DNA from: an uncultured Acidobacteriota bacterium
Lineage (GTDB): Bacteria; Acidobacteriota; Thermoanaerobaculia; UBA5066; DATFVB01
Direction of reading: 5' to 3'
Length of the DNA stretch: 64,000 bases
NCBI GenBank assembly: GCA_963813155.1
Contig: CAWEYG010000001.1
Location: 704,001-768,000 of the forward strand
The translations under genes were made by a program, and so were the position numbers. The notes beneath the pieces are model-generated. The model was not told where the DNA came from. It saw nothing but the letters and a program-made list of their open reading frames with translations, and searched no databases. Shown here piece after piece: positions 25,517-56,949 of the stretch (its first letter is position 1; every line of letters starts with the position of its first letter).

Positions 25517-25520
25517 AAAC

Positions 25521-29524: not shown

Positions 29525-29586
29525 CGGCGGGAGCATACGACGCCGGTCTGGTAAAATCCCCGGGTGCGGCTTCCCGAAAAGCGACG

Positions 29587-38440: not shown

Positions 38441-39149
38441 CGCCCCGACAGCCATCAACGGCAACGCGATCATCCGGATGGAGAAGATCCGAAAGCTCTA
38501 CGACACCGGCAAGGTGAAGGTCGAGGCGCTCAAGGGCGTGGACTTCGAAGTTCGGAAGGGAGAATTCGTCGCGGTCGTCGGGCCGTCCGGCTCCGGCAAG
38601 TCCACGCTCATGAACCTGATCGGCTGCCTCGACACCGCGACGGAGGGCGACTATTACCTCAGCGGCGAGCCGGTCTCGGGGATGTCCCGCGACGGCCTCG
38701 CGGACATCCGGAATCGGCGCGTCGGGTTCGTCTTTCAGAGCTTCAATCTGCTGCCGCAGATCACCGCCGCCGAAAACGTCGAGCTCCCGCTCGTCTTCGG
38801 CGGAAGGGCGCCCCGGGAGCGCAAGGAGCGCGTCGAGGAATTGCTCGCCCGCGTCGGCCTCGCGGACCGCATGGAACACCGGCCGACGGAGCTCTCCGGC
38901 GGGCAGATGCAGCGTGTCGCGATCGCCCGCGCGCTCGCGATGGACCCCGACATCCTTCTGGCGGACGAGCCGACCGGGAACCTCGACAGCGGCTCCGGCA
39001 GCGACATCATGAGCCTCTTCGCAGAGCTGTCCCGGCAGGGCCGCACGCTCGTCGTCATCACTCACGACATGGGCCTGGCCCGCCGCTCCGGCCGCATCGT
39101 CGAGATGCGCGACGGCGCGATCATCGCCGACGGGTCCGCGGCGGCCTGA
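38433..39149 (+). CDS. ABC transporter ATP-binding protein (LolD/MacB type)
   Basis: [27 protein letters not shown]-loop ITHD. Confidence 0.95.
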
Positions 39150-39223: not shown

Positions 39224-40477
39224 ATGCGGATTTCGGATCTTCGCCAGGACTCGGTGGGAAAAGCCATTCGGCTTTCTGCCGCCGTCGTGTGGGAAGACGC
39301 CGATCTTCCCGCCGAGAGGGTCTTCGTCGACGTGGAGGGTGTGGCGCCCGCGGAAGTCTCTCCGAGCGCCGAGTCCTTCGCGATTCGGGCCGCGCTCGCC
39401 GCGCTGCGGCAGCGAGAGAGGCGCCTTCTCGTGGAGGGGTCGCTTTGTCCCCGGCTGCGCGACGGCCTGCGGCAGGCCATGCGGACCCTGAATACCTGGT
39501 ATGACGGAGAGCGGGCCGAACCCGTCCTCGAAGCTTCGCTCGGATTCCGGGCGCTCGCTCCCCGGCCCCGACCGCGCGCCGGGTTGTTCCTCTCGGGCGG
39601 AGCCGACTCGCTGTTCATCCTGCGCTCGAACCGAACGAACTACCCCGCGGATCATCCTTCCTCGTTCCAGACGGCAGTCTTCGTCCCGAATTTCGGCGTG
39701 CCGCTCGAGGCGGTCGGCTCTCCCCGAGCCGCCGATGTTCTCCGCCGCCAGCGGAGCGCGGTCGCGAAGATTGCGGCGGCCGTGGGGCTTCGCCTGGTTT
39801 CGTCCTCGGCGCTCTCGAGCGAGCTCGGCGAGGATTCTCCCTACAGTGCGTCGAGCTCCCACGGGGCGCGGCTGGCGGCTCACGGCCTCCTCTTTGCCGA
39901 TCTCGATTCGATCTCGATCGCGCCGTCCTATGACGCCACCTATCAGCGGCCCTGGGGCAGCCACCCGCTCCTGGATCCCCTCTACAGCAGCAGCTCGCTC
40001 GAAGTGCGTCATGAAGGTTTCGGGTACACGCGGGTCGAGCGTGTCGCCGCCGTCGCGCGATGGAGCGAGGGCCTTCCTCACCTGATCGTCTGCGCTCAGG
40101 GACCGCTCGAGGATGGAAAAGCGAACTGCGGTCGATGCGAGAAATGTATCCGGACGATGATCGAGCTGCTCCTGGCAGATTCTCTCTCGGAAGACGGGCC
40201 GTTCGGGGTCGGCGATCTGGATGCTTCGCTCATCGACCCGTTCTTTCTCGATCCCCTCTCGACTGGCCATTGGAGATCTTTTCCCTCATCGCTTCGGGCG
40301 AAGGGGCGGACGGACCTTGCCGCCGCGGCCGAGCTCACGCTGCGAAACGCGTGTCGCAAGCTCGACTGGCTCGACGACCGCGGTTGGAAGGGCGAGCTCC
40401 GACGATTCGACCGGAAATACCTCGGCGGCCGGCTGCTCGATGCCAGCCGGCGAATTCGCGGCGCCGGGCGAAGCTGA
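39224..40477 (+). CDS. PP-loop/Zn (QueC-like) protein, paralogue 1
   Basis: SGGADS, PWGSHPLLDP, VC..NCGRCEKCIRT, GWKGELRRFDR tail. Confidence 0.85.
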   Translation: MRISDLRQDSVGKAIRLSAAVVWEDADLPAERVFVDVEGVAPAEVSPSAESFAIRAALAALRQRERRLLVEGSLCPRLRDGLRQAMRTLNTWYDGERAEPVLEASLGFRALAPRPRPRAGLFLSGGADSLFILRSNRTNYPADHPSSFQTAVFVPNFGVPLEAVGSPRAADVLRRQRSAVAKIAAAVGLRLVSSSALSSELGEDSPYSASSSHGARLAAHGLLFADLDSISIAPSYDATYQRPWGSHPLLDPLYSSSSLEVRHEGFGYTRVERVAAVARWSEGLPHLIVCAQGPLEDGKANCGRCEKCIRTMIELLLADSLSEDGPFGVGDLDASLIDPFFLDPLSTGHWRSFPSSLRAKGRTDLAAAAELTLRNACRKLDWLDDRGWKGELRRFDRKYLGGRLLDASRRIRGAGRS

Positions 40478-40479
40478 AA

Positions 40480-41724
40480 GTGCGAATTTCCGAGCCCCGC
40501 CTCGAGAAAACGGAATCGCGAATTCGGGCCGTCGCCCGCGTGGAATGGGAAGACTGCGATCGGCCGTCCGGGGACGTGGTCTTCGAGATGGAGGCGGAGC
40601 TGGCCAGCGAGTTCACCGCCTCGCCCGAGGCCTTCGCCATCGTCTGCGCGCTCCAGGCCCGCCGGGACGGTGAACGCCGCCTCAGAATCGAGGCGCCTCT
40701 CTGCCCCCAGCTCCGCGAGGGCCTATCTCGAATCTTCCTGACCCTGGACTCCTGGTTCCCCCCGCGAGCACGCGCGCCCGGGATCGAGGCCTCCGGGGGC
40801 TTTCGCGTCCTCGCGCCGCCCCCGCCACGGGCCGCGGCGCTCGTCTCCGCGGGAATCGACTCGCTCCGCCTGATCCTCGGAAACCGGAGGACCTTCCCGC
40901 GGGACCACCCGTATTCTTTCCTCGACGGGCTCTTCCTGTACGGCACCGTCAACCGGCAGGGTGTTTCTCCCTCGGCGATCGAAAACCTGGTCGAGCGCCA
41001 GCGGCGCTGCGTGGAGGCGGCTTGTCGCCTCGCCGGGATTCGGCTTCTTCCCGTTTTCATCGACCTCAACGTCCTCGGGGACGAGCGGGAGTTCGTGCTG
41101 TCGCAGGGGCACGGCGCGAGGCTCGCGGCGGCCGGGCATCTCTTCCACACCCTTTCGAGGGTTTCGATCGCGTCGTCCTATTTCGCCGGCGACCTGTTCC
41201 CCTGGGGCAGCCATCCGCTGATCGATCCCTTCTTCGGGAGCAGCTCGCTCGACATCCGGCACGAGGGCATCCACCGGCGGCGTCAGGAAGCCGTCCGCGA
41301 TCTTCTCGACTGGCCCGAACTTCTCCCGCTCGCAATGGTCTGCGGCGAGGCGCCGATCGATCCTCGCCGGATCAACTGCGGTCGATGCGAAAAATGCGTT
41401 CGCACCATGCTGGAGCTGGATCTCGCCGGCGCCCTCGAAGCCGCGACGTCCTTCCCGCGGCGCGCCCTCACGGCCGACGATCTCGATGCAATCTCTCCCA
41501 ACTACTCGGTTTTCACGTTCTGGCGGGACCTCGCCGAAGCTCTGGGAGCGAGCGCGCGAAACGACCTCGCCGCGGCGGCGCACCGTGTCGCCGACCGAGC
41601 GGCGCGCCACCGCGATTGGCTCGAAGAAAGCGGCTGGAAGGGAAGGATCCGCCGTTTCGATCGCGTTTCCCTCGGAGGCCGCCTTGCCGGTGCGAGAAAC
41701 GCGTTTCGCCGGGTTCGAGGATGA
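40480..41724 (+). CDS. PP-loop/Zn (QueC-like) protein, paralogue 2
   Basis: GTG start VRISEPR chosen by homology; SAGIDS, PWGSHPLIDP, NCGRCEKCVRT. Confidence 0.85.
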   Translation: MRISEPRLEKTESRIRAVARVEWEDCDRPSGDVVFEMEAELASEFTASPEAFAIVCALQARRDGERRLRIEAPLCPQLREGLSRIFLTLDSWFPPRARAPGIEASGGFRVLAPPPPRAAALVSAGIDSLRLILGNRRTFPRDHPYSFLDGLFLYGTVNRQGVSPSAIENLVERQRRCVEAACRLAGIRLLPVFIDLNVLGDEREFVLSQGHGARLAAAGHLFHTLSRVSIASSYFAGDLFPWGSHPLIDPFFGSSSLDIRHEGIHRRRQEAVRDLLDWPELLPLAMVCGEAPIDPRRINCGRCEKCVRTMLELDLAGALEAATSFPRRALTADDLDAISPNYSVFTFWRDLAEALGASARNDLAAAAHRVADRAARHRDWLEESGWKGRIRRFDRVSLGGRLAGARNAFRRVRG

Positions 41725-41727
41725 CGC

Positions 41728-42951
41728 GTGCGAATCGTTGACCTTCGGCTCGTGCCGACTTCGACGGGGCGGCGGGCGTCCGCCAGACTCTTGTGGGAGG
41801 ACTCCGGCCTTCAACCCTTCGATGCGTATTTCGAGTCCGACGGAGACGGTAGGTCCGGTCTGCGAGCGGGCGCGAATGCGTTTCTCGCGGCCGCTTTCGT
41901 TCCCGCCATTCGCGCCGGCGAAAAGCGCATTCGGATCGAGGAGCAGGCTGTTTGCCCGATTCTTCGCGACGGATTGCGCGCCGCCGCGGCTTTCCTGCGG
42001 GCCTGGTACGGCCCCGCGATCGAACCCGCGATCGAGGCGCCCGGCGGATTTCGCGCCGACCGGCCGGAAGGACCGGCTGCCCTGTTTTTCTCCGGGGGAG
42101 CGGATTCGCTCCACCTGCTCCGCCTCAACCGTTCGATCTATCCGACTTCTCACCCGAACTCATTCCGCGAGGCGCTCCACTTCCTGGGAATGGCGATGTT
42201 CGAGGACGACCCCGGACAGGGCGCGCGCAACCTCGCGGCGCGCGGTCTTCGAAGCTCGGAACGCATCGCCCGAACGAGCGGATTGACCCTTCGAAGCGTT
42301 CGCTCGAACGTCGCTCGATTGAGCGGAGACAATCATTTCTGGGCCACGCACACTCAGGGCGCGATGCTGGCTTCCGTCGCCCTTGGCCAGACGATTCGCT
42401 CGGCCTCGCTCGCGGCGTCCTGGGACACCCGTGCTCTCCCTCCCTGGGGATCTCATCCCCTGCTCGATCCCGGGTACAGCTCGAGCGCGGTCGAGATCCG
42501 CCATCTCGGCGTCGATTTCACGCGGCTCGAGAAGTTGAGGGCCCTTGCGGACTGGCCCGAAGCGCTCGAGAACCTGATGGTCTGTCATGAAACGCCTCTT
42601 CCCGGTGACGAGATCAATTGCGGCCGATGCGAGAAGTGCGTGCGAACGATGGTCGAGCTTCTCGTCGCGAACGCGCTCGATCGCGCGACGGCCTTTCCCG
42701 TGCGCCGCGTGACCGCGGAGATGATCGACGCGGTCGAGCCCGCCCAGATTCGGACCGAAAGGTTCTGGAGCGACCTGACCGGGCCGCTCGAAGCGGTCGG
42801 ACGAGCCGATCTGGCCCGCGCGACGAACGCGTTCGTTTCCCGCGCCCGCCGCCAGCGACAATGGGAAGACGACAGCGGTTGGAGGGGGCGTCTCCGGCGG
42901 CTCGACCGCCGATACCTCGCAGGCGCGCTTCAGCGACTGAGACGACCGTGA
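41728..42951 (+). CDS. PP-loop/Zn (QueC-like) protein, paralogue 3
   Basis: SGGADS, PWGSHPLLDP, NCGRCEKCVRT. Confidence 0.85.
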   Translation: MRIVDLRLVPTSTGRRASARLLWEDSGLQPFDAYFESDGDGRSGLRAGANAFLAAAFVPAIRAGEKRIRIEEQAVCPILRDGLRAAAAFLRAWYGPAIEPAIEAPGGFRADRPEGPAALFFSGGADSLHLLRLNRSIYPTSHPNSFREALHFLGMAMFEDDPGQGARNLAARGLRSSERIARTSGLTLRSVRSNVARLSGDNHFWATHTQGAMLASVALGQTIRSASLAASWDTRALPPWGSHPLLDPGYSSSAVEIRHLGVDFTRLEKLRALADWPEALENLMVCHETPLPGDEINCGRCEKCVRTMVELLVANALDRATAFPVRRVTAEMIDAVEPAQIRTERFWSDLTGPLEAVGRADLARATNAFVSRARRQRQWEDDSGWRGRLRRLDRRYLAGALQRLRRP

Positions 42952-44213: not shown

Positions 44214-44238
44214 GCGGGCGCCGGCTGGAGGTTTCGGC

Positions 44239-45483
44239 GTGAGAATTCGGGATCTGCGCCTGGAATCGGCGGGCAATGCCCTTCGCGCTTCCGCCGCGAT
44301 CGAGTGGGAAGACACACCCCGACCTTCCCGCCGCCTCGCCTTTTCGGCGAAAGGCGCGCTCGCCTCCGCATTCGAGCCCGCGCCCGAGGCATTCGTTCTT
44401 TCCACCGCGTTGGCGGCCAACCGCGCCGGGGAAAGGAGGCTTCGCGTCGAAGCTCGCCTCTGTTCGGTGTTCGCGGACGGCCTCCGCGGCGCCTTCGCGC
44501 TCCTCGATTCCTGGTACGGAGGATCCCGCGTCGCGATGACGATCGAGGCGGCGGGGGGTTTTCGCGCCCGCGCGCGGGGCGCGCCGGTCGCCGCGATGTT
44601 CCTCTCGGGCGGCGTCGATTCGCTCCACATGCTTCGGCTCAACCGCCGCGCGATTCCGCGGCGGCACCCCGAGTCTTTTCGCGTGGCCATTCATGCCCCT
44701 TCTTTTGGATACACGGGCGACGCCGGGGACAGAGAGGCGCGGAACCTCCGGGAGCGAGCGTCGCACAGCGTGGAACAGATCGCCGCCGAGGAGAACCTCG
44801 ACCTGGCGGTCGTCAGCCTCCCTTCGCATCTTCTCGACCCCGAACGCCGGTTCTTCACCGGCGAGAGCCACGCGAGCCTCCTCGCCGCGACGGCTCACCT
44901 TTTCCCCGGCGCCCTGCGGTCGGCGTCGATCGCCGCCTCGGCGAATCTTCGGGGGCACCCGGGACCCTGGGGCTCGCACCCCCTTCTGGACCCCCTCTAC
45001 GGATCGGGGGCGGTGGCGATCCGGCACACGGGCCACGAATTCTCCCGGCTCGAAAAGGTCAGAGATCTTTCGAATTGGGACCTCGCAATGGCAACGCTGA
45101 TCGTTTGCAACGAGTCTCCTCTTCCGCCCGGCGTGACGAACTGCGGCCGGTGCGAAAAATGCGTGAGAACCCTCTGCGAGCTTCTCGCCGCCGGCTCCCT
45201 GGAGCGAGTCTCTACTTTCCCGGTTCGAGACATTTCCGCCGAATCCGTCCGGCGTCTCCAGCCGGTTCAAGATTTCGAAGGGCACAGCTGGAGGGATCTC
45301 CCTCGCGAGCTCGCGGGCCGGCCGGACCTCGCCGCGGCGATCGAGGACTGGATGACGCGGCTGCGGGCCTCGGCGGACTGGTGGGCGGATTGCGGCTGGA
45401 AGGGCCGTCTGCGAAAACTCGACCGCTCGCTGTTCCAGGGACGTCTCCTCGCGCTAAGGCGCCGATGGAGCGAGCAGCCGTGA
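44239..45483 (+). CDS. PP-loop/Zn (QueC-like) protein, paralogue 5
   Basis: GGAGG SD plus GTG; SGGVDS, PWGSHPLLDP, NCGRCEKCVRT. Confidence 0.85.
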   Translation: MRIRDLRLESAGNALRASAAIEWEDTPRPSRRLAFSAKGALASAFEPAPEAFVLSTALAANRAGERRLRVEARLCSVFADGLRGAFALLDSWYGGSRVAMTIEAAGGFRARARGAPVAAMFLSGGVDSLHMLRLNRRAIPRRHPESFRVAIHAPSFGYTGDAGDREARNLRERASHSVEQIAAEENLDLAVVSLPSHLLDPERRFFTGESHASLLAATAHLFPGALRSASIAASANLRGHPGPWGSHPLLDPLYGSGAVAIRHTGHEFSRLEKVRDLSNWDLAMATLIVCNESPLPPGVTNCGRCEKCVRTLCELLAAGSLERVSTFPVRDISAESVRRLQPVQDFEGHSWRDLPRELAGRPDLAAAIEDWMTRLRASADWWADCGWKGRLRKLDRSLFQGRLLALRRRWSEQP

Positions 45484-46724
45484 GGGTTCAGGATTTCCGG
45501 CTGGAAGCAGACGGCTCCATCCTCCGGGCCTCCGCCGCCGTCGAATGGGAAGATTCCCCGCGGCCTCCCCGGCGGCTCACGTTTTCGACCGAGGGCGCGC
45601 TCGCGAACGCGTTCGAGCCGGCTCCCGAGGCTTTTGCCCTCTCCGTGGCGTCGGCGGCCGCTCGAGCCGGTGAACGCCGCCTCCGTCTGGAGGCTCCCCT
45701 CTGCGCCGTGCTCGCGGACGGTCTTCGCTCGGCGCTCGCGCTCCTCGATTCTTGGAACGGAGGGTCTCGCGCCGCGATGACACTCGAGGCCGCGGGGGGA
45801 TTTCATGCCCGCGCTCGGGGCGCGCCGGTCGCCGCGATGTTTCTTTCGGGGGGCGTCGATTCGCTTCACATGCTGCAGCGGAACCGACTCGTCGTTCCGC
45901 CGTCCTGCCCGGAGTTCTTTCGCGTCGCCATCCACGCCCGCTCTTTCGGGTATGCGGGCGACGCCGCCGACGCCGAGGCCCGCAACCTGTGGGAACGCGC
46001 TTCGATCGCTGCCCGAAGAATCGCCGAAGCCGAGGGACTCGAGTTCGCGGCCGTGCATTCCGACGCGCGCCTTCTCGATCCGGACCGGAAGTTTTTCATC
46101 GCCGAGAGCCACGCCGCCCACCTCGCGGCCGCGGCGCACCTTTTTCCGGGCGCCCTGCGCTCGGCTTCGATCGCCTCCTCGGCCGACCTTCGGCGGCACT
46201 ACCGGCCCTGGGGCTCCCACCCCCTTCTCGATCCGCTCTACGGCTCGGGTGCGATCGCGATCCGGCACTCGGGCCACGAGTTCGCCCGGCTCGAAAAGGT
46301 GAGCGACATCTCGCGCTGGGACCTCGCGATGAGCGAACTGATCGTTTGCAACGAAACGCCCCTTCCGGCCGGCGTCAGGAATTGCGGCCGATGCGAGAAA
46401 TGCATGCGGACCCTGTTCGAGTTCCTGGCGGTGGGCTCTCTCTCCAAGGCGTCGACTTTCGCCGTCCGGGACGTCACGCCGGCCTCGATTCGGCGTCTCC
46501 GCACCGTCGAAGCCTCCGCCGTTCGCCGGTGGATCGACCTGCGGCAGGAACTTCGGGGTCGCTCCGATCTCTCCGCGGCGATCGACGACTGGATCGGGCG
46601 GCTCCTGGCGACGGCGGAGTGGCACGCCGAGGAGAACTGGAAGGGGCGGCTCCGGCGGATCGACCGCGCCTGGTTCGGCGGCCGCTTGCTCGCGCTGAAG
46701 CGCCGAAGGAAGATGGCCTCGTGA
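45480..46724 (+). CDS. PP-loop/Zn (QueC-like) protein, paralogue 6 (close duplicate of 5)
   Basis: GTGA overlap; SGGVDS, PWGSHPLLDP, NCGRCEKCMRT. Confidence 0.85.
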   Translation: MRVQDFRLEADGSILRASAAVEWEDSPRPPRRLTFSTEGALANAFEPAPEAFALSVASAAARAGERRLRLEAPLCAVLADGLRSALALLDSWNGGSRAAMTLEAAGGFHARARGAPVAAMFLSGGVDSLHMLQRNRLVVPPSCPEFFRVAIHARSFGYAGDAADAEARNLWERASIAARRIAEAEGLEFAAVHSDARLLDPDRKFFIAESHAAHLAAAAHLFPGALRSASIASSADLRRHYRPWGSHPLLDPLYGSGAIAIRHSGHEFARLEKVSDISRWDLAMSELIVCNETPLPAGVRNCGRCEKCMRTLFEFLAVGSLSKASTFAVRDVTPASIRRLRTVEASAVRRWIDLRQELRGRSDLSAAIDDWIGRLLATAEWHAEENWKGRLRRIDRAWFGGRLLALKRRRKMAS

Positions 46725-47953
46725 AAATTCGCGACATTCGTCTCGAGTCCGCCGGCGGGCGTGTCTCCGCCCGCGGCCGTTTCGAATGGGAAGACTCCGA
46801 GCGGCCGCCCGTGGAGGTTTATTTTCGGGGGGACGAATCCCTCTCGTTCGGCCTTTCTGCAGCTCCGGAAGCGTTTCTCGTGGCGGGCTTCTTCCCGGCG
46901 ATGCATCACGGCGAACGCCGGATCGCCCTGGACGGCCCCGTTTGCCCGCGCCTGCGCGACGGCCTGCTCGGCGCGGGCCGGTTGTTTCAGCTCTGGTACG
47001 GCCACACGCCGCCTCGAATCGAAGCACAGCATGGCTCGCTCGCTTCCCCGGAACCGCCGCCCGATTCCACCGCCGCTTTCCTGACGGGGGGGATCGATTC
47101 GCTCCACGCGATCTGGAAAAACCACCGTCTCTACCCGGCGGACCACGAAGGCCGCGTTCGCGAAGCCCTGTTCGTCTTCGGGCTAGAAATGCCGGGCCTC
47201 GAGGACACTCCCCGGGCCGCCCGGCGCCTCGCGGCGATCGCGCCCTACCTCAAGCGAGTCGCCGGCGACGCCGGGCTGAAGTTGACCCGGATCGAGACGA
47301 ACGTCCGAACGCTCGAACCCGACACGAGCTTCTGGGCATGGGAGTACATCGCGCCGCCGCTTGCGGCCGTGGCGCACGCGCTGTCGGGGCGGTTCTCGGC
47401 GGTTCTTCTCGGCTCGTCCTACGACTACCGGAACCTCGTCCCCTGGGGGACTCATCCGCTCCTCGATCCGCTGCTCGGATCCGCGTCGATGTCGATCGAG
47501 CATGTCGGCGCCGCGACGCATCGGCTCGAGAAGATTCGGGACCTTCTCGAGTGGCCGCTCGCGATTCGCGGCCTTCTCGTCTGCGGAAATTCGCCGGTGG
47601 ATCGCGTCAATTGCGGGGTCTGCGGAAAATGCCTTCGCGCGATGGCCGAATTGATCTCCGTCGGCGCTCCCCAGCCCGAAACCCTCCCTGCCCTGGAAGC
47701 CCTGCGACCCGATGCGATCGACCGCCTCGAAGTGGGGACAATCGACGTCGGAAACTTCTGGGAAGCCCTGATTCCCGGGCTCACCGCCCATGGACGGAGC
47801 GATCTCGCCGGGGCGGTGGCGCGTTATGCCCGCCGGCTGCAGCTCGCCAAGCACCCGGAGGGCCTTCGAAAGTTGAAACAAGACCTCATCCAGATCGACT
47901 CCCGCCTCTTCGGCGGCGGTCTTCGGTCGCTCCGACGCCGACTCGGCCGCTGA
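46721..47953 (+). CDS. PP-loop/Zn (QueC-like) protein, paralogue 7
   Basis: GTGA overlap; TGGIDS, PWGTHPLLDP, NCGVCGKCLRA. Confidence 0.85.
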   Translation: MKIRDIRLESAGGRVSARGRFEWEDSERPPVEVYFRGDESLSFGLSAAPEAFLVAGFFPAMHHGERRIALDGPVCPRLRDGLLGAGRLFQLWYGHTPPRIEAQHGSLASPEPPPDSTAAFLTGGIDSLHAIWKNHRLYPADHEGRVREALFVFGLEMPGLEDTPRAARRLAAIAPYLKRVAGDAGLKLTRIETNVRTLEPDTSFWAWEYIAPPLAAVAHALSGRFSAVLLGSSYDYRNLVPWGTHPLLDPLLGSASMSIEHVGAATHRLEKIRDLLEWPLAIRGLLVCGNSPVDRVNCGVCGKCLRAMAELISVGAPQPETLPALEALRPDAIDRLEVGTIDVGNFWEALIPGLTAHGRSDLAGAVARYARRLQLAKHPEGLRKLKQDLIQIDSRLFGGGLRSLRRRLGR

Positions 47954-47978
47954 GTCGGCGCGAACTGGCCCTCCGGCG

Positions 47979-49829
47979 TCACGAATCCGTTTGGAGGCAG
48001 CGGCGAACCCACGCGTCGAGAACCCGCGTGCGAAAACCGAGATCGTGGCCGAGCACCGCGTCCTCCTCGCAGAGCCCGGGGGACGTCCACCCGCCGGCCG
48101 CCAATCGCCGCCACGCGTCGCGGACGAGCTGGGGCGCCTCTCGGGCCTTTCCCTCGAGCGGGCCCGGGAGACCCAGTTTTCGGGGACGGGTCAGAATCGA
48201 AGCCGGGATGAGTCCCCGAAGCGCCGCCCGCAGGACCGCCTTCGTCCACCCGTTTCGAAGAAGGAATCCGTCCTGCAGGGTGCGCGCAAACTCCACGACC
48301 CGGTAGTCGAGAAAAGGCAATCGCGCTTCGATCCCGAAGGCCATGGAATTGCGGTCTTCGAAAGCGAGGAGCGCAGGAAGGTAATCGGCGAGGAGCAGGT
48401 GTCTCTGGTGCGTCTGCAGGGTCCCGTCGATCTCGCAACCGCAGGGCAGAGGCCGGCGCGACGTCCTCACGACCCCAAGCGTGTGCCGGGCTCCCCGAAC
48501 GGAGCCCCAGCGACGACGGCCGGAAAGAAACCCCTCCTTTACGGCCCGAGCGCGCTCGTTTCGGTTCCAGAGCTGCGCCACGTGGACGTCCCACGGCTCG
48601 TATCCGGCGAAGAGCTCGTCGGAGCCCTGCCCGCTCAACATGACCGTCAATCCGAGGCGGCGGGCCTCCCGATAAAGCAGGCGCTCCGCATAGAAGATCG
48701 AGCTGGGAATGAGCTCCTCCAGGGAGTCCACGAGCTCGTCGAGGTCTTCGTCGAATCCGTCCGTCGAAGGCTCGATGAATTCTCCGGAGAAGCCCGTCTC
48801 GCGAAGCGATTCCTCGATATAGAAACTCTCGTCGATTTCAGGCCGCCCCGGGTAGCGGGTCGAAATCGTGCGCCCCGAGAAACTTTCGCGATTTCGGTTG
48901 CTGCGGCCCAGGATGCCCGCAATCGCCGAAGAATCGACTCCGCCGGAGAGAAGCAGCCCGACCGGGACGTCGGCGCGCAGACGAATCGACACTGCGTCCT
49001 CGAGTAGTTCTCTCAACCGTTCCGCCGCGTCCTCGAGGCTGGCCGGAGCGTCGAGCGCGGCGGCGTTCCCGTCCAGGTCGTACCAGCGTTCGACACGGAA
49101 CCCGCGGGAATCGACCCGAAGGGTCGATCCGGCGGGCAACGATTTGTACGACGCGAAACAGGTCGACTCCTGATTGTCCAGCGTCGCGCCGACCTCGAGA
49201 AAGACACGAACGCGCTCGCGGTTGGCTTCCGGGGCTCGCACCGGGCGAAGGGCCTTCGGCTCCGACCCAAACGCGAACCGCGACTCCGTTGACGTGTAAT
49301 AGAAGGGCTTGATCGCGAACCGGTCCCGCGCGCAGAACAGCTCGCGGCGTTCCGCGTCCCAGATCGCGAACGCCCACATTCCGTTGAATCGCTCGAGAGC
49401 CTTCGCCCCCCATCGCACATAGGCCGCGAGCAAAACCTCCGTGTCAGTCGAAGTGGTGAATTCCTCTCCTTCCGACCGAAGCTCGTCCCGCAGCTCCGGC
49501 GCGTTGTAAATCGCGCCATTGAAGACGATCCACCACCGCCCGTTCCCCCGGCTCATCGGCTGCCGCCCCGAATCGGAGAGATCAGTGATCGCGAGCCGCT
49601 GATGCCCGAGCCCGATCCGGGGGCCGGCCGGGAACGGGCCAGCGGGCAGCGGCATCGCGGCGCGTTCCGAGAGACTCTCGCGCGGACCTTCGCGGAGGCA
49701 CGCCCCGTCGTCCTCCAGCCAGCCGCCCCCGTCGGGTCCGCGGTGCTCGATTCGGCGAAGCATCTCCAGGAGCATCCGGCGGTCCACCGGAGCACTCGAG
49801 AGTTCCATCACTCCGGCAATTCCGCACAT
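47979..49829 (-). CDS. asnB: AsnB-like glutamine-dependent amidotransferase, copy 1
   Basis: MCGIAG (Ntn Cys), HRGPD, NGAIYN, RDRFAIKP, LSGGVDSS, SGQGSDE, EDRNSMAFGIEARLPFLD. Confidence 0.92.
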   Translation of the reverse strand: MCGIAGVMELSSAPVDRRMLLEMLRRIEHRGPDGGGWLEDDGACLREGPRESLSERAAMPLPAGPFPAGPRIGLGHQRLAITDLSDSGRQPMSRGNGRWWIVFNGAIYNAPELRDELRSEGEEFTTSTDTEVLLAAYVRWGAKALERFNGMWAFAIWDAERRELFCARDRFAIKPFYYTSTESRFAFGSEPKALRPVRAPEANRERVRVFLEVGATLDNQESTCFASYKSLPAGSTLRVDSRGFRVERWYDLDGNAAALDAPASLEDAAERLRELLEDAVSIRLRADVPVGLLLSGGVDSSAIAGILGRSNRNRESFSGRTISTRYPGRPEIDESFYIEESLRETGFSGEFIEPSTDGFDEDLDELVDSLEELIPSSIFYAERLLYREARRLGLTVMLSGQGSDELFAGYEPWDVHVAQLWNRNERARAVKEGFLSGRRRWGSVRGARHTLGVVRTSRRPLPCGCEIDGTLQTHQRHLLLADYLPALLAFEDRNSMAFGIEARLPFLDYRVVEFARTLQDGFLLRNGWTKAVLRAALRGLIPASILTRPRKLGLPGPLEGKAREAPQLVRDAWRRLAAGGWTSPGLCEEDAVLGHDLGFRTRVLDAWVRRCLQTDS

Positions 49830-49880
49830 GGGAATCGAGATCTTAGCCCCGATCCAACTGCCGCGCTTATACTCTCGCGC
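49830..49880. promoter_or_regulatory. Bidirectional promoter, copy 1
   Basis: TAAGAT on minus (49840-49845) and TATACT on plus (49868-49873); homologous to 55553-55601. Confidence 0.65.
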
Positions 49881-49926
49881 GTGCGCGCGGAACGCTCCCG
49901 GTTGATTCCAAGGCGGTCCTTGTAGG

Positions 49927-51192
49927 ATGCGGATCTCGAATTTTCGCCACGAAGTCCGAAAAGACACGGTGCGAGTTTCCGCCGCCGTTCAGTGGGAGGA
50001 TAGCGATCTTCCCGCTGAAGATCTCTGCTTCGAAGCGGAAGGCGTAGCGCCCGGGGAATTCGTTCCGAGTCCGGAGGCCTTTGCGATCCGCGGCGCTCTC
50101 GCGGCGCTCCACCAGAACGAAAAGCGAGTCCTCGTGGAAGGCGCGCTGTGTCCGCGATTGCGGGACGGGCTCCGGGCTGCTCTCCGGACGCTCAGGGCCT
50201 GGTACTCACCGAACCTCGGGGTACCGCTCATCGAAGCGACCGGCGGACTCCGGGCGCTCTACCCGCCCCGGCCGCAGGCGGCCGTGTTTCTCTCCTGCGG
50301 ATTCGACTCGCTCTTCCTGCTGCAATCCAACCGCTCGAGCTTTCCGCTCGACCACCCCGCATCCTACCGAGTCGCGCTTTTTGTCCCCAATTTCGGAGCG
50401 CTTCCGGAGGCCTTCTCTTCGCCCCGGGCCGTCGACTTCCTCGCGAGACAGCGGCGCTCGCTCGAGCGCATCGCGCCTCTGGCAGGCGTCCGCCTGATGT
50501 CCGTATCGGACCATTCGGGAAGGCTTGGCGAAGACGACCACTATTTCACCGTCAGCTCCCATGGTGCCCATCTGGCCGCACTCGCTCACCTTTTCCCCGC
50601 GTTGAGCTCGGCTTCCATCGCGGTCTCGCACGACTGCACCCAGCTGGCCCCCCTGGGGAGCCATCTGCTGCTCGACCCGAACTACAGCAGCAGCTCCCTC
50701 GAAATCCGCCACGAGGGAATCGCGTTCACCCGGCTGGAGCGCGTCGCGTCTGTGGCCCGCTGGAAGGAGATGCTTCCGCACGCCGTGGTCTGTTCGAAGG
50801 GGCCGTTTGCCTCCGGCCGAACCAACTGCGGCCGCTGCGAAAAGTGTCTGCGCACGATGATCGAGCTCTTGCTCTCCGATTCGCTCTCCGCCGAAGGTCC
50901 GTTTTCCGCCACGGACGTCGACCCGTCGTTCGTGGACCGGGCGACCATGCGCGCGGGCTCGATTTTCCACTGGGAGCCTCTCCCTCGGCTTCTCCGGGAG
51001 CGGGGACGGAAGGACCTCGCAGCACCGGCCGAGCGCCTGATTGCCAGGACTCGCGAGCGCGGAGCCTGGTTCAGAGACCGCGGCTGGAAGGGCGCACTGC
51101 GCCGGCTGGATGGCAGATTTCTCGGGGGACGCCTTCTCGAAGCGAGTCGCCGCCTTCGCGGCCAACACCGTGGGCGGGATACCGCACCGTGA
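49927..51192 (+). CDS. PP-loop/Zn (QueC-like) protein, paralogue 8 (closest to 1)
   Basis: SCGFDS, FVPNFG, PLGSHLLLDP, NCGRCEKCLRT. Confidence 0.85.
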   Translation: MRISNFRHEVRKDTVRVSAAVQWEDSDLPAEDLCFEAEGVAPGEFVPSPEAFAIRGALAALHQNEKRVLVEGALCPRLRDGLRAALRTLRAWYSPNLGVPLIEATGGLRALYPPRPQAAVFLSCGFDSLFLLQSNRSSFPLDHPASYRVALFVPNFGALPEAFSSPRAVDFLARQRRSLERIAPLAGVRLMSVSDHSGRLGEDDHYFTVSSHGAHLAALAHLFPALSSASIAVSHDCTQLAPLGSHLLLDPNYSSSSLEIRHEGIAFTRLERVASVARWKEMLPHAVVCSKGPFASGRTNCGRCEKCLRTMIELLLSDSLSAEGPFSATDVDPSFVDRATMRAGSIFHWEPLPRLLRERGRKDLAAPAERLIARTRERGAWFRDRGWKGALRRLDGRFLGGRLLEASRRLRGQHRGRDTAP

Positions 51193-52436
51193 AAATTACA
51201 GATCTCCAGAAGCGATCGATCGAAGAGCGCGTGCGCGTCTCGGCCCGCGTGGAATGGGAAGACTCCCCCCGAGCGCCCCTGGAGATTTACTACGAAACCG
51301 GCGCCTCGTTCGAGAACGACGTCGCCGCCGATTCCAATGCGTTCCTGACAGCCTGCGTTCTTCCGGCGATGCATCAGGGCGAAAAGAGGATCGCTCTCGA
51401 AGGCCCCGTTTGTCCGCGCCTGTGCGAAGGGCTCTCGACGGCGGGCGCGCTGCTGCGCTCGTGGTGGGGCCCTCCGCGAGGCGAAATCCGGATCGAATCG
51501 GCACGCGGATATCGGGCGCCGGTTCCCCGTCGACCCTCGCGCTCGGCGCTCTTCTTCACCGGAGGGGTCGATTCGCTTCATCTCCTCCGGCGGAACCAGA
51601 TCGACTATCCGCGAGCCCATTCCGAATCGTTCCAGGATGCCATCGCCGTGTTCGGGCTCCTCCGCCCCGATCGGGACGCTCGGGCTGCGCCGGACAAACG
51701 CGACGTCGCCACGCTGGGCGCCCTTTCGAGCATCACAGCCGAGGCGGGACTCCGACTGGTCCCGATCACCACGAACCTCACGCTGCTCGAGCCCGATCTG
51801 GACTTCTTCGCCAAAGAGTTCATCGGCGCGGCCCTGAGCTCCGTGGCTCACCTTCTGTCTTCCACCGTGAGCTCGATCTCGCTGGCATCCGGCCGCAACG
51901 TCCCACTCCTGGTTCCCCTGGGGACGCATCCCCTTCTGGATCCCTGCTTCAGCAGCGGCGCTCTGGATGTTCGCCACGTCGGGCTTCGTTTCTCGCGGAT
52001 TCAACGCATTCGCGAAGTCTGCGAATGGGATGCCGCGATCCGGGGCCTCGTCGTCTGCCTGAATTCTCCGCCGCCGCCGCACCTCAACTGCGGACGCTGC
52101 GAAAAGTGTCTGCGAACGATGACGGCCCTTGCGGCGTTCGGAAAGCTCGCGAGCGCCCGACTGTTTCCCGTCCCCGAGATTTCCGCCGCGATGATCGATT
52201 CGGCCGCTGTGACGCCCCACGTCGCCGGCTACTGGAGAGAGCTCCTGGGCCCTCTTCGAGACGCGCGTCGACCCGATCTCACTGCCGCGGTCGAGCGAAG
52301 ACTCGACGCCGCGAATCAAGCGAGGCGGTGGTTTGAGGAAGAGGGCTGGAAAGGGACGATGCGAAAGATCGATCGGCGATTTCTGGGAGGGGCAGCGCTG
52401 CGAGTCCGGCGAGTCCTGTGGAACGCCGCGAAATGA
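51189..52436 (+). CDS. PP-loop/Zn (QueC-like) protein, paralogue 9
   Basis: GTGA overlap; TGGVDS, PLGTHPLLDP, NCGRCEKCLRT. Confidence 0.85.
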   Translation: MKITDLQKRSIEERVRVSARVEWEDSPRAPLEIYYETGASFENDVAADSNAFLTACVLPAMHQGEKRIALEGPVCPRLCEGLSTAGALLRSWWGPPRGEIRIESARGYRAPVPRRPSRSALFFTGGVDSLHLLRRNQIDYPRAHSESFQDAIAVFGLLRPDRDARAAPDKRDVATLGALSSITAEAGLRLVPITTNLTLLEPDLDFFAKEFIGAALSSVAHLLSSTVSSISLASGRNVPLLVPLGTHPLLDPCFSSGALDVRHVGLRFSRIQRIREVCEWDAAIRGLVVCLNSPPPPHLNCGRCEKCLRTMTALAAFGKLASARLFPVPEISAAMIDSAAVTPHVAGYWRELLGPLRDARRPDLTAAVERRLDAANQARRWFEEEGWKGTMRKIDRRFLGGAALRVRRVLWNAAK

Positions 52437-53692: not shown

Positions 53693-53713
53693 CCGTCCCG
53701 CGCGCCCGGAATG

Positions 53714-55552
53714 TCAGGGGTCTCCGCCGAGGCAACGTCGCGTCCACGCGTCGAAGATTCGAATGCGAAGCCGGAATTGGGGATCGAGCGATTCCCCGTC
53801 CGCCGGCGTCGAATCCATCCATCCGCCTTCGACGAGCCTCTGCCTCGCCTCGCGCACGGCGAGCGGCAGGCTTTGAACCCGGCTCTCAAAGGGACCGGGC
53901 AAGCCGAGCTTTCGGGGGCGTCGCAAGACCGAGTCGGGAACGACACCCGCGAGCGCGGCCCGAAGCACGGCTTTCGTCCAGCCGTCTCGGAGGAGAAACT
54001 CCGCGGGCAGGCTCCTCGCAAACTCCACGATCCTGTAATCGAGGAAGGGAAGTCGCGTTTCGATCCCCCACGCCATCGAGTCGCGATCCTCGAAAGCGAG
54101 AAGGCCCGGCAGATAGTCGAAGCAAAGCAGGTGCCTCTGGTGCTGCCGCAAGGAACCGTCGACCGGGCAGCCGCAGGGAAGCGGGCGCCGGGCGGTCCGG
54201 AGGATTCCCACCGTGTGACGGGCCCCCCGGACAAGTCCCCAACGGCGGCGGCCCGAGAGAAACCCTTCGCGAATCGCGGCCAGCGGCCGCCCCCCGTTCC
54301 AGAGCTGCTTCGTGTAAACGTCCCACGGCTCGTACCCGCCAAACAGCTCGTCGGAGCCCTGCCCGGAGAGCATCACCGGGAAACCGAGCTGCTTCGCCCG
54401 CCGGTGAAGCAGCCACTGTGCGAAAAAGAGACTCGACGGAACGAGGGCATCGACCGTCTCGATGAAGCAATCGAGACTCTCGGCGAATTCCTCTGCAGAG
54501 GGCTCGATGAAGTCCCCCGAGAACCGGGTCGCGTCCAGAACGTCTCGAATGTAGGCGCTTTCGTCGATGTCCGGGAGCTTCGGATACCGCGTCGAGATGG
54601 TGCGGCCGGAAAATTCTCCCTGCGAGGCGCGGTGACACAGAATGCCCGCGATTCCCGAAGAGTCGACGCCGCCCGAAAGCAACAACCCGATCGGCACGTC
54701 CGCGCGCAGTCGCAACGCGACGGAGTCCTCGAGCAATCCGCGGAGCCTCGCCGCCGCCTCCGGAAGGGTCGCGGGCGGAGCGATCGCCGCCACCCGTTCG
54801 TCATACCACTTCTCGATCCGAATTCCCGCGCGCCCGACCCGCAGGACATTGCCCGGCGGCAGGCAGCGGTAAGAGTCGTAGCAGGTGACGTCGACGCCGT
54901 CGGTCGTCGAACCCGTTGCGAGGTAGGTTCGCGCGAAGTCGACGTTCGGCGCGGCCGGCCGCACCGGTCGAAGCGCCTTGGGTTCGGAGGCGAACGCGAA
55001 CAGGGAACCCGCGGTCGTGTAGTAGAACGGCTTGATCGCAAATCGATCGCGAGCGCAGAAGAGCTCCCGGCGCTCCGCATCCCAGATCGCGAAGGCCCAC
55101 ATTCCGTTGAATCGGTCGAGAGCCTTCGCCCCCCATCGAACATATGCGGCAAGCAGCACTTCCGTGTCGGTCGAGGTGGTGAATTCCTCCCCTTCCGCCC
55201 GAAGTTCGTCACGCAGCTCGGGCGCGTTGTAGATCGCGCCGTTGAACACGATCCACCAGCGGCCGTTCGCCCGGCTCATCGGCTGGCGACCGAATTCGGA
55301 GAGATCGGTGATTGCCAGCCGCTGATGCCCAAGCGCGACCTCGAGCCCCGGGGCCCCGGCGGCGCCAGGACTCGGCCGCGTCGACGAAGGAAGCGGCGAA
55401 TGTCGGGCGCCCTGGAGAAGCGAAACGCCGTCGTCTTCGAGCCAGGCGCCGCCGTTCGGCCCGCGGTGCTCGATCCGATGGAGCATCCGCAGGAGAACGT
55501 CGCGATCCGCCGCGCCGCCGGAGAGGTCGAGGAGCCCCGCGATTCCGCACAT
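53714..55552 (-). CDS. asnB: AsnB-like glutamine-dependent amidotransferase, copy 2
   Basis: MCGIAG, HRGPN, NGAIYN, LSGGVDSS, SGQGSDE, EDRDSMAWGIETRLPFLD. Confidence 0.92.
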   Translation of the reverse strand: MCGIAGLLDLSGGAADRDVLLRMLHRIEHRGPNGGAWLEDDGVSLLQGARHSPLPSSTRPSPGAAGAPGLEVALGHQRLAITDLSEFGRQPMSRANGRWWIVFNGAIYNAPELRDELRAEGEEFTTSTDTEVLLAAYVRWGAKALDRFNGMWAFAIWDAERRELFCARDRFAIKPFYYTTAGSLFAFASEPKALRPVRPAAPNVDFARTYLATGSTTDGVDVTCYDSYRCLPPGNVLRVGRAGIRIEKWYDERVAAIAPPATLPEAAARLRGLLEDSVALRLRADVPIGLLLSGGVDSSGIAGILCHRASQGEFSGRTISTRYPKLPDIDESAYIRDVLDATRFSGDFIEPSAEEFAESLDCFIETVDALVPSSLFFAQWLLHRRAKQLGFPVMLSGQGSDELFGGYEPWDVYTKQLWNGGRPLAAIREGFLSGRRRWGLVRGARHTVGILRTARRPLPCGCPVDGSLRQHQRHLLCFDYLPGLLAFEDRDSMAWGIETRLPFLDYRIVEFARSLPAEFLLRDGWTKAVLRAALAGVVPDSVLRRPRKLGLPGPFESRVQSLPLAVREARQRLVEGGWMDSTPADGESLDPQFRLRIRIFDAWTRRCLGGDP

Positions 55553-55601
55553 GGACAGGCGATCTTAGCCTGATCGAAATGCCGCGCTTATACTCGCGCC
55601 C
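55553..55601. promoter_or_regulatory. Bidirectional promoter, copy 2
   Basis: TAAGAT on minus (55562-55567), 9 nt from ATG 55552; TATACT on plus (55589-55594), 7 nt from GTG 55602. Confidence 0.65.
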
Positions 55602-56858
55602 GTGCGCGTCGAGAATTTCGCTCTGACCCGGACGGGCGAGGCAGTCCGCCTCACCGCCGATATCATCTGGGAGGAGGCGCCGCGAAAGCCTTTTCAGCTC
55701 TATTACGAGATCGATGCGCGCTTCGCGGCGGATCTTCCTGATGACGGCGACGCGTTTCTCTGTTCGATCGCGATATCGGCATCGCGCGACGGAGAACGGC
55801 GCGTCCTCGTGGATCGGCCGGTGTCCCGCCGGCTTGCGGAAGGGGTGACAAGGGCGGTCGCGATTCTCAAGACCTGGTACCCCGGCCCCCGCACGCTCCC
55901 CCGGCTGGAATCTCCCGCCGGGTTCCTCACCCGGAGCAGCGGCGCCGGTTGCGCCTCCCTGTGCCTGACCGGCGGAGTGGATTCGATGCACGCGCTCCGG
56001 CAGAACCGCCGGAATCATTCCGCCTCCGATCCCCGGTCGTTCCGGCGGGCTCTTTACGTGCTTCACCTTTCGTTTCCTGCGGGCGACGCGCTCGCGCGCG
56101 CCCGCGACCTGGCGAAGAGGCAGCTGGCAACGCTCTCCGCAATCTGTGAGGAGACGGACCTTGACCTCTGCGCGGTTCGCACGAACGTTCGCCTGATCGA
56201 GCCCTCTCTGTCTTATTCGCAGGCGGAAGGGCTGGGCTCCCTTCTGAGCGCGTCCGCCCATATCCAGGCGCGCGGGCTCTCGTCCCTCTCGATCGCGTCG
56301 TCGTCCTACGAAGCGGAAGACCTCCGGCCCTGGGGCACCCACCCGTTGCTCGATCCGAACTTTTCGTCCAACTCTCTGGCAGTGATTCACGAAGACGCAG
56401 GCGTGCCGCGAACCGACAAAGTCCGGAACATCGCCCGGTGGAAACCGGCGTCACGGCACCTTCTCGTCTGCTTCGAGGGGCCGCTCGCGGATGGCCGGGC
56501 CAACTGCGGACAGTGCGAGAAGTGCTTGCGAACGATGACGGCTTTGCTCGCCGTTGAAGGCGCCGAAGAGAACGAGGCCTTTGCGGGCGCCAGGGTCACC
56601 GCCGAGGCGATTCGGCAAATGCCTCTCAGTTACGACCCGAACGAATTTCCGTACCTCTGGGAACCGCTCGCGAGATCGATGGACGGGACCGGCCGGGGCG
56701 ATCTCGCTTCCGCAATCCGCCGTCGCGTCGCGGAAGCCCGGAGATATCTGAAATGGCGCGCCGAAAAGGACTGGAAGGGGGTTCTCCGGAGGCTCGATCG
56801 GCGGTTGCTGGGTGGGCGCCTCACCGCGGCGACCCGAAAGCTGCGCGGAATCCGTTGA
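55602..56858 (+). CDS. PP-loop/Zn (QueC-like) protein, paralogue 11
   Basis: TGGVDS, PWGTHPLLDP, VCFEGP..NCGQCEKCLRT, DWKGVLRRLDR. Confidence 0.85.
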   Translation: MRVENFALTRTGEAVRLTADIIWEEAPRKPFQLYYEIDARFAADLPDDGDAFLCSIAISASRDGERRVLVDRPVSRRLAEGVTRAVAILKTWYPGPRTLPRLESPAGFLTRSSGAGCASLCLTGGVDSMHALRQNRRNHSASDPRSFRRALYVLHLSFPAGDALARARDLAKRQLATLSAICEETDLDLCAVRTNVRLIEPSLSYSQAEGLGSLLSASAHIQARGLSSLSIASSSYEAEDLRPWGTHPLLDPNFSSNSLAVIHEDAGVPRTDKVRNIARWKPASRHLLVCFEGPLADGRANCGQCEKCLRTMTALLAVEGAEENEAFAGARVTAEAIRQMPLSYDPNEFPYLWEPLARSMDGTGRGDLASAIRRRVAEARRYLKWRAEKDWKGVLRRLDRRLLGGRLTAATRKLRGIR

Positions 56859-56949
56859 TCGTCTTCCTGCATGCGCGGGCCCTCGACAGGCCAACTTTCA
56901 TCCCCACTCCAATCGCGATAGTCTCCTCGGCGGAGAGAAGGGAGAGTCC

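Follow-up and report, generated by a model that had tools for sequence, protein, structure and literature searches.

Eleven paralogues of an unnamed QueC-like PP-loop family lie behind a MacAB-type exporter in an uncultured Acidobacteriota bacterium

We analysed a stretch of 64,000 nucleotides (hereafter, the window) from contig CAWEYG010000001.1 of an uncultured Acidobacteriota bacterium from soil, and in particular an array of genes located at 39224-56858. The array consists of 11 intact + strand genes encoding proteins of 407-421 amino acids (aa), arranged in blocks of seven, three and one, with two - strand AsnB genes between the blocks. Judged by their sequences, these 11 genes are paralogues of a very large, hitherto unnamed family of PP-loop ATP pyrophosphatases, a new family inside a known superfamily, with a core homologous to QueC. 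The 11-copy array, in a genome that carries 13 copies, is an unusual lineage-specific expansion. As an interpretation to which we give an even chance, the encoded proteins would be enzymes that adenylate carboxylates and form amides, thereby diversifying a glycan or polymer that is exported.

In a six-frame motif scan, the NCGxCxKC motif was detected 11 times between 40124 and 56502, exclusively on the + strand, and each site was preceded, about 170 residues upstream, by an [ST]xGxDS PP-loop (11 of 11 copies). The PP-loop pattern also matched both - strand AsnB genes and three chance sites elsewhere. Together with the reading frames and the alignment, the scan bore out the initial annotation of the window, which had described eleven intact + strand paralogues in blocks of 7, 3 and 1 with two asnB genes between them. 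The coupling of neighbouring genes by GTGA/ATGA that it had reported was also confirmed, with 4-base overlaps at five junctions (42948, 45480, where the GTG start is used, 46721, 51189 and 52433), and the largest gap within the array was 97 bases. The genes and the two divergent intergenic regions of the array are listed below; G403 is a related genome.

39224..40477, + strand, family copy 1, 417 aa; the G403 ortholog is 90.8% identical
40480..41724, + strand, family copy 2, 414 aa
41728..42951, + strand, family copy 3, 407 aa
42948..44213, + strand, family copy 4, 421 aa; GTGA overlap with copy 3
44239..45483, + strand, family copy 5, 414 aa; 69% identical to copy 6
45480..46724, + strand, family copy 6, 414 aa from GTG 45480, or 419 aa from ATG 45465
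46721..47953, + strand, family copy 7, 410 aa; the most diverged copy, 30-40% identical to the others
47979..49829, - strand, AsnB1, glutamine-hydrolysing asparagine-synthase-type amidotransferase, 616 aa, starting MCGIAG; 84.9% identical in G403
49830..49926, no strand, divergent intergenic region of AsnB1 and copy 8; a stretch of about 55 bases with a TATACT box is repeated upstream of AsnB2
49927..51192, + strand, family copy 8, 421 aa; 58% identical to copy 1
51189..52436, + strand, family copy 9, 415 aa
52433..53692, + strand, family copy 10, 419 aa
53714..55552, - strand, AsnB2, 612 aa, starting MCGIAG; 65% identical to AsnB1
55553..55601, no strand, divergent intergenic region of AsnB2 and copy 11; homologous to part of 49830-49926
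55602..56858, + strand, family copy 11, 418 aa

At the alternative start of copy 6, the five added N-terminal residues matched nothing in the other copies in the alignment. One gene start required correction: AsnB1 begins with MCGIAG at 49829, not at 49967, and therefore does not overlap copy 8. Pairwise identity among the 11 copies was 30-69%, and the only close pairs were copies 5 and 6 (69%) and copies 1 and 8 (58%). A profile search of the whole genome (3.81 Mb, 23 contigs, 90.8% complete) detected the 11 copies with E-values of 3e-158 to 6e-181 and zero internal stops, and in addition two solo copies on other contigs (C5:8366-9613 and C3:66896-68065). The count of 11 given in the initial annotation thus holds for the array, and the genome total is 13. 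One solo copy (L121:9511-12066, G000:C3) lies directly after a gene encoding a 435-aa protein with a homocysteine S-methyltransferase domain. Such an S-methyltransferase neighbour recurs in a Phycisphaeraceae locus (L048), in which the family gene is located beside metH and the undecaprenyl-diphosphatase gene bacA.

The alignment of the 11 copies contained 37 invariant columns, including W23, E24, G126, D128, S129, G245, H247, D251, C290, N301, C302, C305, K307 and C308. The N-terminal domain of about 110 residues is specific to the family and carries WE[DE], GExR and CP. The core, at residues ~115-326, is QueC-like, with SGGxDS followed by GSHPLLDP and then by C-x(9-11)-CxxCxxC. Both the [ST]xGxDS loop, in which G126, D128 and S129 are invariant, and the cysteine site, which is predicted to bind zinc, were present in 11 of 11 copies. 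The C-terminal part, of about 90 residues, is helical and ends in a basic tail; of the final 45 residues, 11-17 are Lys/Arg and 3-7 are Asp/Glu. The 11-copy alignment and a 65-sequence family alignment (A3) gave as family invariants TN (196-197), GSHPLLDP (245-252), R270, K273 and NCGxCEKCxRTM. Of the shared motifs first described, the PP-loop and the four cysteines stood in all 11 copies, with two amendments of detail: the spacer is C-x(8-10)-NCG and not x(8-9), and G[ST]Hx(2)[LI]D has to be widened to G[ST]Hx2[LIV]D because one copy carries GSHPVLD. No transmembrane-like stretch was detected in the 11 copies (highest 19-residue hydropathy, 1.55), and the proteins are predicted to be soluble. 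Variability among the paralogues was highest at residues 31-45, 151-210 and 316-360; the stretch 151-210 aligns with the QueC region bearing the YxQxHxxE and VPxRN motifs that are given in excerpts of PMC13329287.

The relationship with QueC was analysed by comparison of alignments with hhalign. A3 matched the alignment of 26 acidobacterial QueC sequences with 94.4% probability (E 8.4e-8). The match spanned 177 columns, beginning at the PP-loop and ending at the Cys cluster, with PP-loop placed on PP-loop and Cys cluster on Cys cluster. In the controls, the probability was 0.2% when the QueC alignment was reversed and 0.1-0.7% when its columns were shuffled (ten shuffles). The QueC-type PP-loop and Cys4 core proposed in the initial annotation was thus upheld. 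The match of A3 was 39.8% with 12 N-acetyl sugar amidotransferases (NASATs) and 18% with AsnB, and, as a scale, QueC matched the NASATs at 94.9%. The family therefore forms a branch of its own in the PP-loop superfamily, at a distance from QueC similar to that of NASAT. Sub-threshold Pfam matches to QueC were detected in 15 of the 65 family members (best E 0.0022), and the gathering threshold of PF06508 was reached by none of the 11 copies.

QueC (PF06508; the structure of the B. subtilis protein, 3BL5, is cited in excerpts of PMC13329287) and the array family share the SGGxDS PP-loop and, about 170 residues on, the C...CxxCxxC site, in identical order, and the profile–profile homology extends across the whole QueC domain. 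By analogy, the first chemical step, adenylation of a carboxylate by ATP, is probably common to both. The array proteins differ from QueC in their doubled length and additional N- and C-terminal domains, in the Cys spacer (9-11 residues against 8 in QueC), in having their own motifs TN, GSHPLLDP and NCGxCEKCxRTM, and in lacking a queuosine-pathway context. The QueC motifs YxQxHxxE, VPxRN and YPDC, as given in the same excerpts, are not kept, the aligned positions being unconserved or in gaps. In addition, the genome encodes a separate, canonical QueC (C2:530936-531574, 240 bits).

None of the 11 copies reached any model of Pfam-A or NCBIfam, and no full-length match to a characterised family was found. 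Against PADLOC, 0 of 11 copies matched at E<=1, whereas the genome's own QueC, used as a positive control, matched the PADLOC QueC model at 1.9e-21. Searches of PDB chains with the profiles A1, A2 and A3 gave no significant match (best E 0.23, 1 and 0.43, respectively); the sub-significant matches to MnmA (E 0.54) and QatC (9vlk_A, E 0.89) aligned the PP-loop alone. QatC (of QatABCD) and Cap9 (of type IV CBASS, the cyclic-oligonucleotide-based antiphage signalling system) resemble the array family as QueC scaffolds in a non-queuosine role that are longer than QueC. The array family differs from both in having neither a PADLOC match nor their partner genes, and in being found in the context of glycan or exporter genes, not of defence islands. 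The nearest functional analogy is provided by the NASATs (TIGR03573), which include WbpG, WbuX and LpNASAT (PDB 8WEX). According to excerpts of PMC10607449, these proteins of about 380 aa combine a PP-loop near residue 122 with a zinc tetracysteine, occur in O-antigen clusters, where they are believed to use ATP for the ligation of ammonia to a substituent of a sugar. In NASAT, however, the Cys motif is located ahead of the PP-loop (PMC13329287, in excerpt), while in the array family it follows the PP-loop, and no array copy matched TIGR03573 at E<=1 in the NCBIfam search. Identity as QueC, QatC, Cap9 or NASAT was ruled out by Pfam, NCBIfam, PADLOC, hhalign and motif comparison. Another candidate, DUF6395, was rejected: its Pfam matches, in 15 of 65 members, were weak and sub-threshold, the genome has no true member, and DUF6395 was not mentioned in the literature searched.

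Our full-text literature search found no published description of the family. The survey in PMC13329287, as far as its excerpts describe it, covers members of PF06508; the array proteins fall below that model and are thus outside it. Based on a search of 1.84 billion representatives with the 11-copy profile, we identified 8,225 clusters (50% identity) at E<=1e-3 and 2,648 at <=1e-30, in Acidobacteriota, Planctomycetota, Verrucomicrobiota, Chloroflexota, Cyanobacteriota, Desulfobacterota, Nitrospirota and Pseudomonadota. The best 120 proteins of the 90% collection carry no Pfam domain, and all are named merely 'hypothetical protein'. A few lineages have expanded to 7-14 copies per genome. No match was found among 50,697 phage records, and the plasmid matches (n=10) were all on non-mobilizable megaplasmids. 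On a Nostoc sp. UHCC 0302 plasmid, a 466-bit member (L148:10001-11176) without a canonical [ST]xGxD[SA] PP-loop lies between transposase genes, near a polysaccharide tyrosine autokinase; from its sequence, this member may be a degenerate, non-catalytic copy.

The array is genuine and not an assembly artefact. The divergence of the 11 copies (30-69% identity) is too high for repeats that an assembler might confuse or collapse, and they are thus old paralogues. Logan contigs of run X1, which is probably the source sample, covered the whole array at an even depth of 6-13, and contigs of >=99% likeness bridged 11 of the 14 gene junctions from the ATP-binding cassette (ABC) ATPase gene upstream to the DUF4337 gene downstream. 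Run X2, from another study, covered 40375-48639 at about 96-99% likeness and bridged the junctions copy 1/2, copy 2/3 and copy 7/AsnB1. Cover by X2 was nearly nil on 49912-56885, and that by X3 and X4 was very low; such low cover was not counted as evidence of absence. A rearrangement reading of certain joints in the read mapping was rejected: the short sides measured 20-59 letters at 90% likeness and were taken as cross-matches from paralogues or other organisms. The same arrangement was present in two further assembled genomes, G403 and G401.

Upstream of the array, on the same strand, four genes encode a MacAB-type exporter.

34704..35813, + strand, MacA/HlyD-type periplasmic adaptor; Pfam HlyD_3 and HlyD_D23; TIGR01730 139 bits (cut-off 94.9); MacA 3e-31
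35947..37170, + strand, MacB-type permease 1 (MacB_PCD and FtsX); 93.6% identical in G403 and 79.6% in G401
37181..38440, + strand, MacB-type permease 2 (MacB_PCD and FtsX), assigned by domain models and synteny
38433..39149, + strand, ABC ATPase of MacB/LolD/DevA/DarD type; ends 74 bases ahead of copy 1

This layout was found in three genomes of one lineage (the source, G403 and G401), with a common order of adaptor, permease, permease, ATPase, array and an AsnB gene on the opposite strand. The number of family copies at the locus was 11 in the source, 8 in G403, including one broken copy, and 7 in G401. The flanking proteins of G403 are 92-95% identical to those of the source (adaptor, 85%), and its array contains orthologs of copies 1, 2, 3, 4, 6 and 7 (82.5-90.8%) and of AsnB1 (85%), together with an extra copy after copy 1 and a broken copy-5-like gene. 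Copies 8-11 and AsnB2 were absent from the assembled locus of G403. In G401, the flanking proteins are 75-80% identical, the seven copies are <=41% identical to the source copies, and the one AsnB (60%) lies on the opposite strand. Genome-wide, profile matches numbered 14 in G403, where some were fragments of broken copies, and 7 each in G401 and the Planctomycetaceae genome G402. Of the two broken copies in G403 (C11:173105-174335, in L122, and C10:4122-5355), one is frameshifted or split and the other contains an in-frame TGA. Their presence points to birth-and-death turnover of the array.

The family genes are under purifying selection. Against G403, the ratio of non-synonymous to synonymous substitution rates (dN/dS) was 0.13-0.23 for the six family orthologs, and 0.18 for AsnB1; the adaptor gene gave 0.20, and values for five flanking genes were 0.07-0.10. 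The copies are therefore kept by selection while evolving about twice as fast as their neighbours. With a gene caller based on the GC content of third codon positions (GC3), values of 0.76-0.77 were obtained for copies 1, 8, 10 and 11 and for two longer open reading frames (ORFs) containing copies 4 and 5, and 0.78-0.79 for both AsnB genes, compared with 0.84-0.92 for the exporter genes and purL. The matching array ORFs of G403 were likewise lower in GC3 (0.78-0.81 vs 0.85-0.88). In a tree of 74 sequences (quick search, LG+G4, rooted on four Desulfobacterota sequences), the acidobacterial copies formed one clade (SH-aLRT 96) and the seven planctomycete copies another (100), so that arrays arose independently at least twice. 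Further upstream, at 22968-26697, a secretin with TPR, a prepilin-type N-methylation protein and small genes resemble a type II secretion or type IV pilus system, unrelated to the array.

We next consider the neighbourhoods of relatives, for which the best 79 of at least 583 encoding stretches from a pattern scan of 185,579 species genomes were used. Adjacency counts are based on the 72 of these 79 loci that have a called family gene. A single copy within the fetched stretch was the usual state (63/79 loci). The statement in the initial annotation that the array fits no pathway therefore needs qualifying: the family is not rare, and one copy per locus is its common form. A RimK-type ligase was directly adjacent in 34/72 loci. 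A Wzt-like ABC ATPase was adjacent in 7/72 (within three genes in 13), a GMC oxidoreductase in 7/72 (within three genes in 10), PGA_cap in 3/72 (within three genes in 4), a pyruvyl transferase in 2/72 and AsnB in 2/72, namely, G401 and a verrucomicrobial locus.

Two contexts recur. In Desulfobacterota, a shorter form of about 375 aa, without the tail, is encoded after a GNAT-containing protein and an alpha-L-glutamate ligase of the RimK family; the RimK-family ligases score above the cut-off of TIGR00768, and a GNAT domain often precedes them or is fused to them. Near this trio, in the Desulfobacterota loci L064-L119, were found an adenylate cyclase, a TLC-transporter-like protein of ~1,070 aa (cNMP-binding, HEAT) and an FGE-sulfatase-like gene, which suggests a cyclic-nucleotide-controlled system. 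In the second context, which spans many phyla, the form of about 410 aa follows genes for an ABC-2 permease and a Wzt-like ATPase. These Wzt-type loci also contain nucleotidyl transferase, RmlC, GT2, GT4, Wzy_C, PGA_cap, sulfo-, carbamoyl-, pyruvyl- and acetyltransferases, and deacetylases. The family domain also occurs in three natural fusions, with PS_pyruv_trans, Sulfotransfer_1 and Acetyltransf_6. On plasmid p4 of Azospirillum brasilense, a member (208 bits; SGGLDS, NCGVCEKC) lies directly after a polysaccharide pyruvyl transferase gene. In polysaccharide loci of several phyla (L045, L052, L053, L066, L070, L076, L085 and L089, at about 11300-16500 in each), the 3' side of the family gene is occupied by a module of GMC oxidoreductase, 4Fe-4S dicluster protein, NrfD-like membrane protein, hexapeptide acetyltransferase and DUF5672. 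This module looks like a quinone-linked sugar oxidation step and was matched to no described pathway.

From sequence and by analogy, we infer a chemistry, a substrate and a link to the exporter and AsnB as follows. Each copy would most likely bind ATP and adenylate a carboxyl group (or amide carbonyl) of its substrate, as QueC and other PP-loop enzymes do, and ammonia or an amine would then displace AMP to give an amide, or possibly an amidine or nitrile. Most likely, the reaction would take place in the cytoplasm, before the ABC exporter acts, on an acidic group of a glycan of the cell surface, a glycolipid or some other polymer destined for export. In this acidobacterial lineage, the gene appears to have been amplified by tandem duplication behind the MacAB-type exporter and around AsnB-type genes, and each copy probably handles a different acceptor site or amine, because divergence is greatest in the stretch that aligns with the QueC substrate pocket; the set of copies differs between strains. 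A cytoplasmic enzyme that adenylates a carboxyl or carbonyl group of an exported glycan or polymer, with an amide-type product, would fit the QueC-like core with its intact ATP loop and Cys4 site, the position behind ABC exporters, the fusions to glycan-decorating domains and the neighbours, whose common theme is the making or bearing of carboxyl groups (pyruvate ketal, Glu ligase, oxidoreductase, AsnB).

Several observations weigh against this interpretation. Neither a cluster of glycosyltransferases nor any nucleotide-sugar gene was found by Pfam in the array or in the 20 kb around it, the sole GT2 gene (28634-29536) being 10 kb off, and both solo copies lie in non-glycan contexts, one with a methyltransferase and the other with the homocysteine-S-methyltransferase-domain gene. 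The 79 loci are taxonomically skewed, and the commonest neighbourhood among them, the Desulfobacterota GNAT-RimK context, favours a peptide-like small molecule over a glycan. We know of no precedent for eleven different amide decorations on one glycan. The adjacency to the exporter may reflect descent alone, the three genomes all being of one lineage, and AsnB1 and AsnB2, as the genome's only two, could be plain housekeeping asparagine synthases. The glycan target named as the likeliest in the initial annotation thus gains from the relatives in Wzm/Wzt polysaccharide clusters and from the fusions to pyruvyl-, sulfo- and acetyltransferase domains, but not from the array itself, which has no glycan gene. 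The carboxylate activation, diversified specificities and epimerase activity suggested in that annotation are putative.

The strongest alternative, which we nevertheless regard as unlikely, is a stand-alone ligase assembly line, in which the paralogues would act serially, like Mur ligases, each forming one amide bond of a small peptide-like or polyamide metabolite (an osmolyte, a siderophore-like compound or a signal) that AsnB would amidate and the MacAB-type pump would export. N-Acetylglutaminylglutamine amide is made by a GNAT/ATP-grasp synthetase and an AsnB-type amidotransferase, and the GNAT-RimK layout ahead of the family gene recalls this pair (TIGR03103 and TIGR03104). The tight coupling of the array through its five overlaps is consistent with such a pathway, as are the direct position after RimK-family alpha-L-glutamate ligases in nearly half of the 72 loci, often with GNAT, and the resemblance of the window's pump to MacB/DarD-type peptide exporters. 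A fixed multi-step pathway is, however, expected to be conserved, whereas copy number varies at one locus (11, 8 and 7) and the G401 copies are <=41% identical to those of the source against 75-80% for the flanks. Moreover, one copy per locus is the rule in 63/79 loci, the array has no ATP-grasp or GNAT gene, and matches to TIGR03103 were 25-44 bits against a cut-off of 569.

The two AsnB proteins are of the glutamine type, with the nucleophile Cys directly after the initiator Met, and exceed the cut-off of TIGR01536 (391.5 and 383.2 bits for AsnB1 and AsnB2; cut-off 267.1). Both are far below the cut-offs for PEP-CTERM and NAGGN amidotransferases, and they are the sole full-length AsnB genes in the 90.8% complete genome. 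The proposal that glutamine-dependent amidation accompanies the array family agrees with this type, but among the other loci AsnB was adjacent in just 2 of 72. In the AsnB pair, the 5' ends and about 55 bases of upstream DNA are duplicated. The ~55 bases common to both intergenic regions include GATCTTAGC and the TATACT box; at copy 11, this box ends about 10 bases ahead of the GTG start, which hints at a very short leader or none. In excerpts of PMC2615507, a role in the amidation of uronic acids is proposed for the AsnB-type Bordetella genes wbmC/I/Z, which lie in an O-antigen locus of the wzm/wzt type and are candidates only. The array AsnB genes are of the same type and share this amidation theme, whereas for the Bordetella genes no QueC-like partner is known. 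The same excerpts describe a papain-like deamidase that trims O-antigen uronamides in Bordetella. On the 3' side of the array, a DUF4337 membrane protein (56950-57549, probable start ATG 56950; weak SLATT_1 match; 95% identical in G403) is followed at 57562-58431 by a cytoplasmic protein (94% identical in G403) with a sub-threshold match to the permuted papain-like amidase family C92. An amidase beside putative amide-forming enzymes may not be a matter of chance.

AsnB also bears on a second alternative, maturation of a ribosomally synthesized and post-translationally modified peptide (RiPP), in which the AsnB proteins would be lasso-type macrolactam cyclases, the QueC-like paralogues would modify peptide carboxylates, and the MacB-type pump would export the product. 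Both AsnB proteins do match NF033535, a model for lasso cyclases, the pump is similar to DarC and DarD of the darobactin exporter, and the PGA_cap neighbours of relatives weakly match the lasso epimerase MslH (76 bits). The NF033535 scores (291.9 and 271.3 bits) are nevertheless far under its cut-off of 525, unlike those for TIGR01536. No leader peptidase or B-protein domain was found by Pfam among the called genes of the region, and gaps of <=97 bases leave no room for a precursor gene, in agreement with the earlier statement that the array contains no precursor peptide. With relatives located in glycan clusters, we consider this reading improbable.

A role in conflict or defence, in which the paralogues, like QatC and Cap9, would attach a small molecule to proteins or nucleic acids and the array would serve as a diversified recognition battery, appears slightly less probable still. 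The reuse of the QueC scaffold for phage defence is described in excerpts of PMC13329287 and PMC13376578, and the variable copy number, the faster evolution and the lower GC3 relative to the flanks would suit such a battery. The results given above argue otherwise: the lack of PADLOC matches alongside a working QueC control, the absence from phage records and the restriction of plasmid matches to non-mobilizable megaplasmids, the dN/dS values typical of purifying selection, and the E-value of merely 0.89 for QatC. In addition, no QatA/B/D, CD-NTase or TGT-like partner was detected by Pfam in the region. Finally, that the copies are true QueC/ToyM-type nitrile synthases of nucleoside or tRNA/DNA 7-deazaguanine chemistry, as the SGGxDS loop and Cys4 site in QueC order might suggest, is scarcely credible, with no copy at the PF06508 threshold, the QueC motifs of PMC13329287 (in excerpt) not kept, a canonical QueC elsewhere in the genome and, as first annotated, no queD/E/F or tgt domain by Pfam among the called genes of the region.

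Returning to the preferred interpretation of amide-forming enzymes acting on an exported polymer, a bolder form of it, which we hold to be rather unlikely, is that the family represents an unrecognised class of 'carboxyl editors', in which each paralogue puts a different amide-linked substituent on an exported surface polymer, or turns an AsnB-made amide into an amidine or nitrile as QueC does. If this were true, the array would be a source of combinatorial, strain-specific and fast-changing surface chemistry, like O-antigen variation. The family recurs at the export step of polysaccharide pathways. Azospirillum brasilense is a cultured and tractable carrier with a single copy beside a pyruvyl transferase gene, which makes the question directly testable, and solving the reaction would give a function to thousands of 'hypothetical proteins' and could bring to light a new type of ATP-dependent decoration of bacterial surface polymers.

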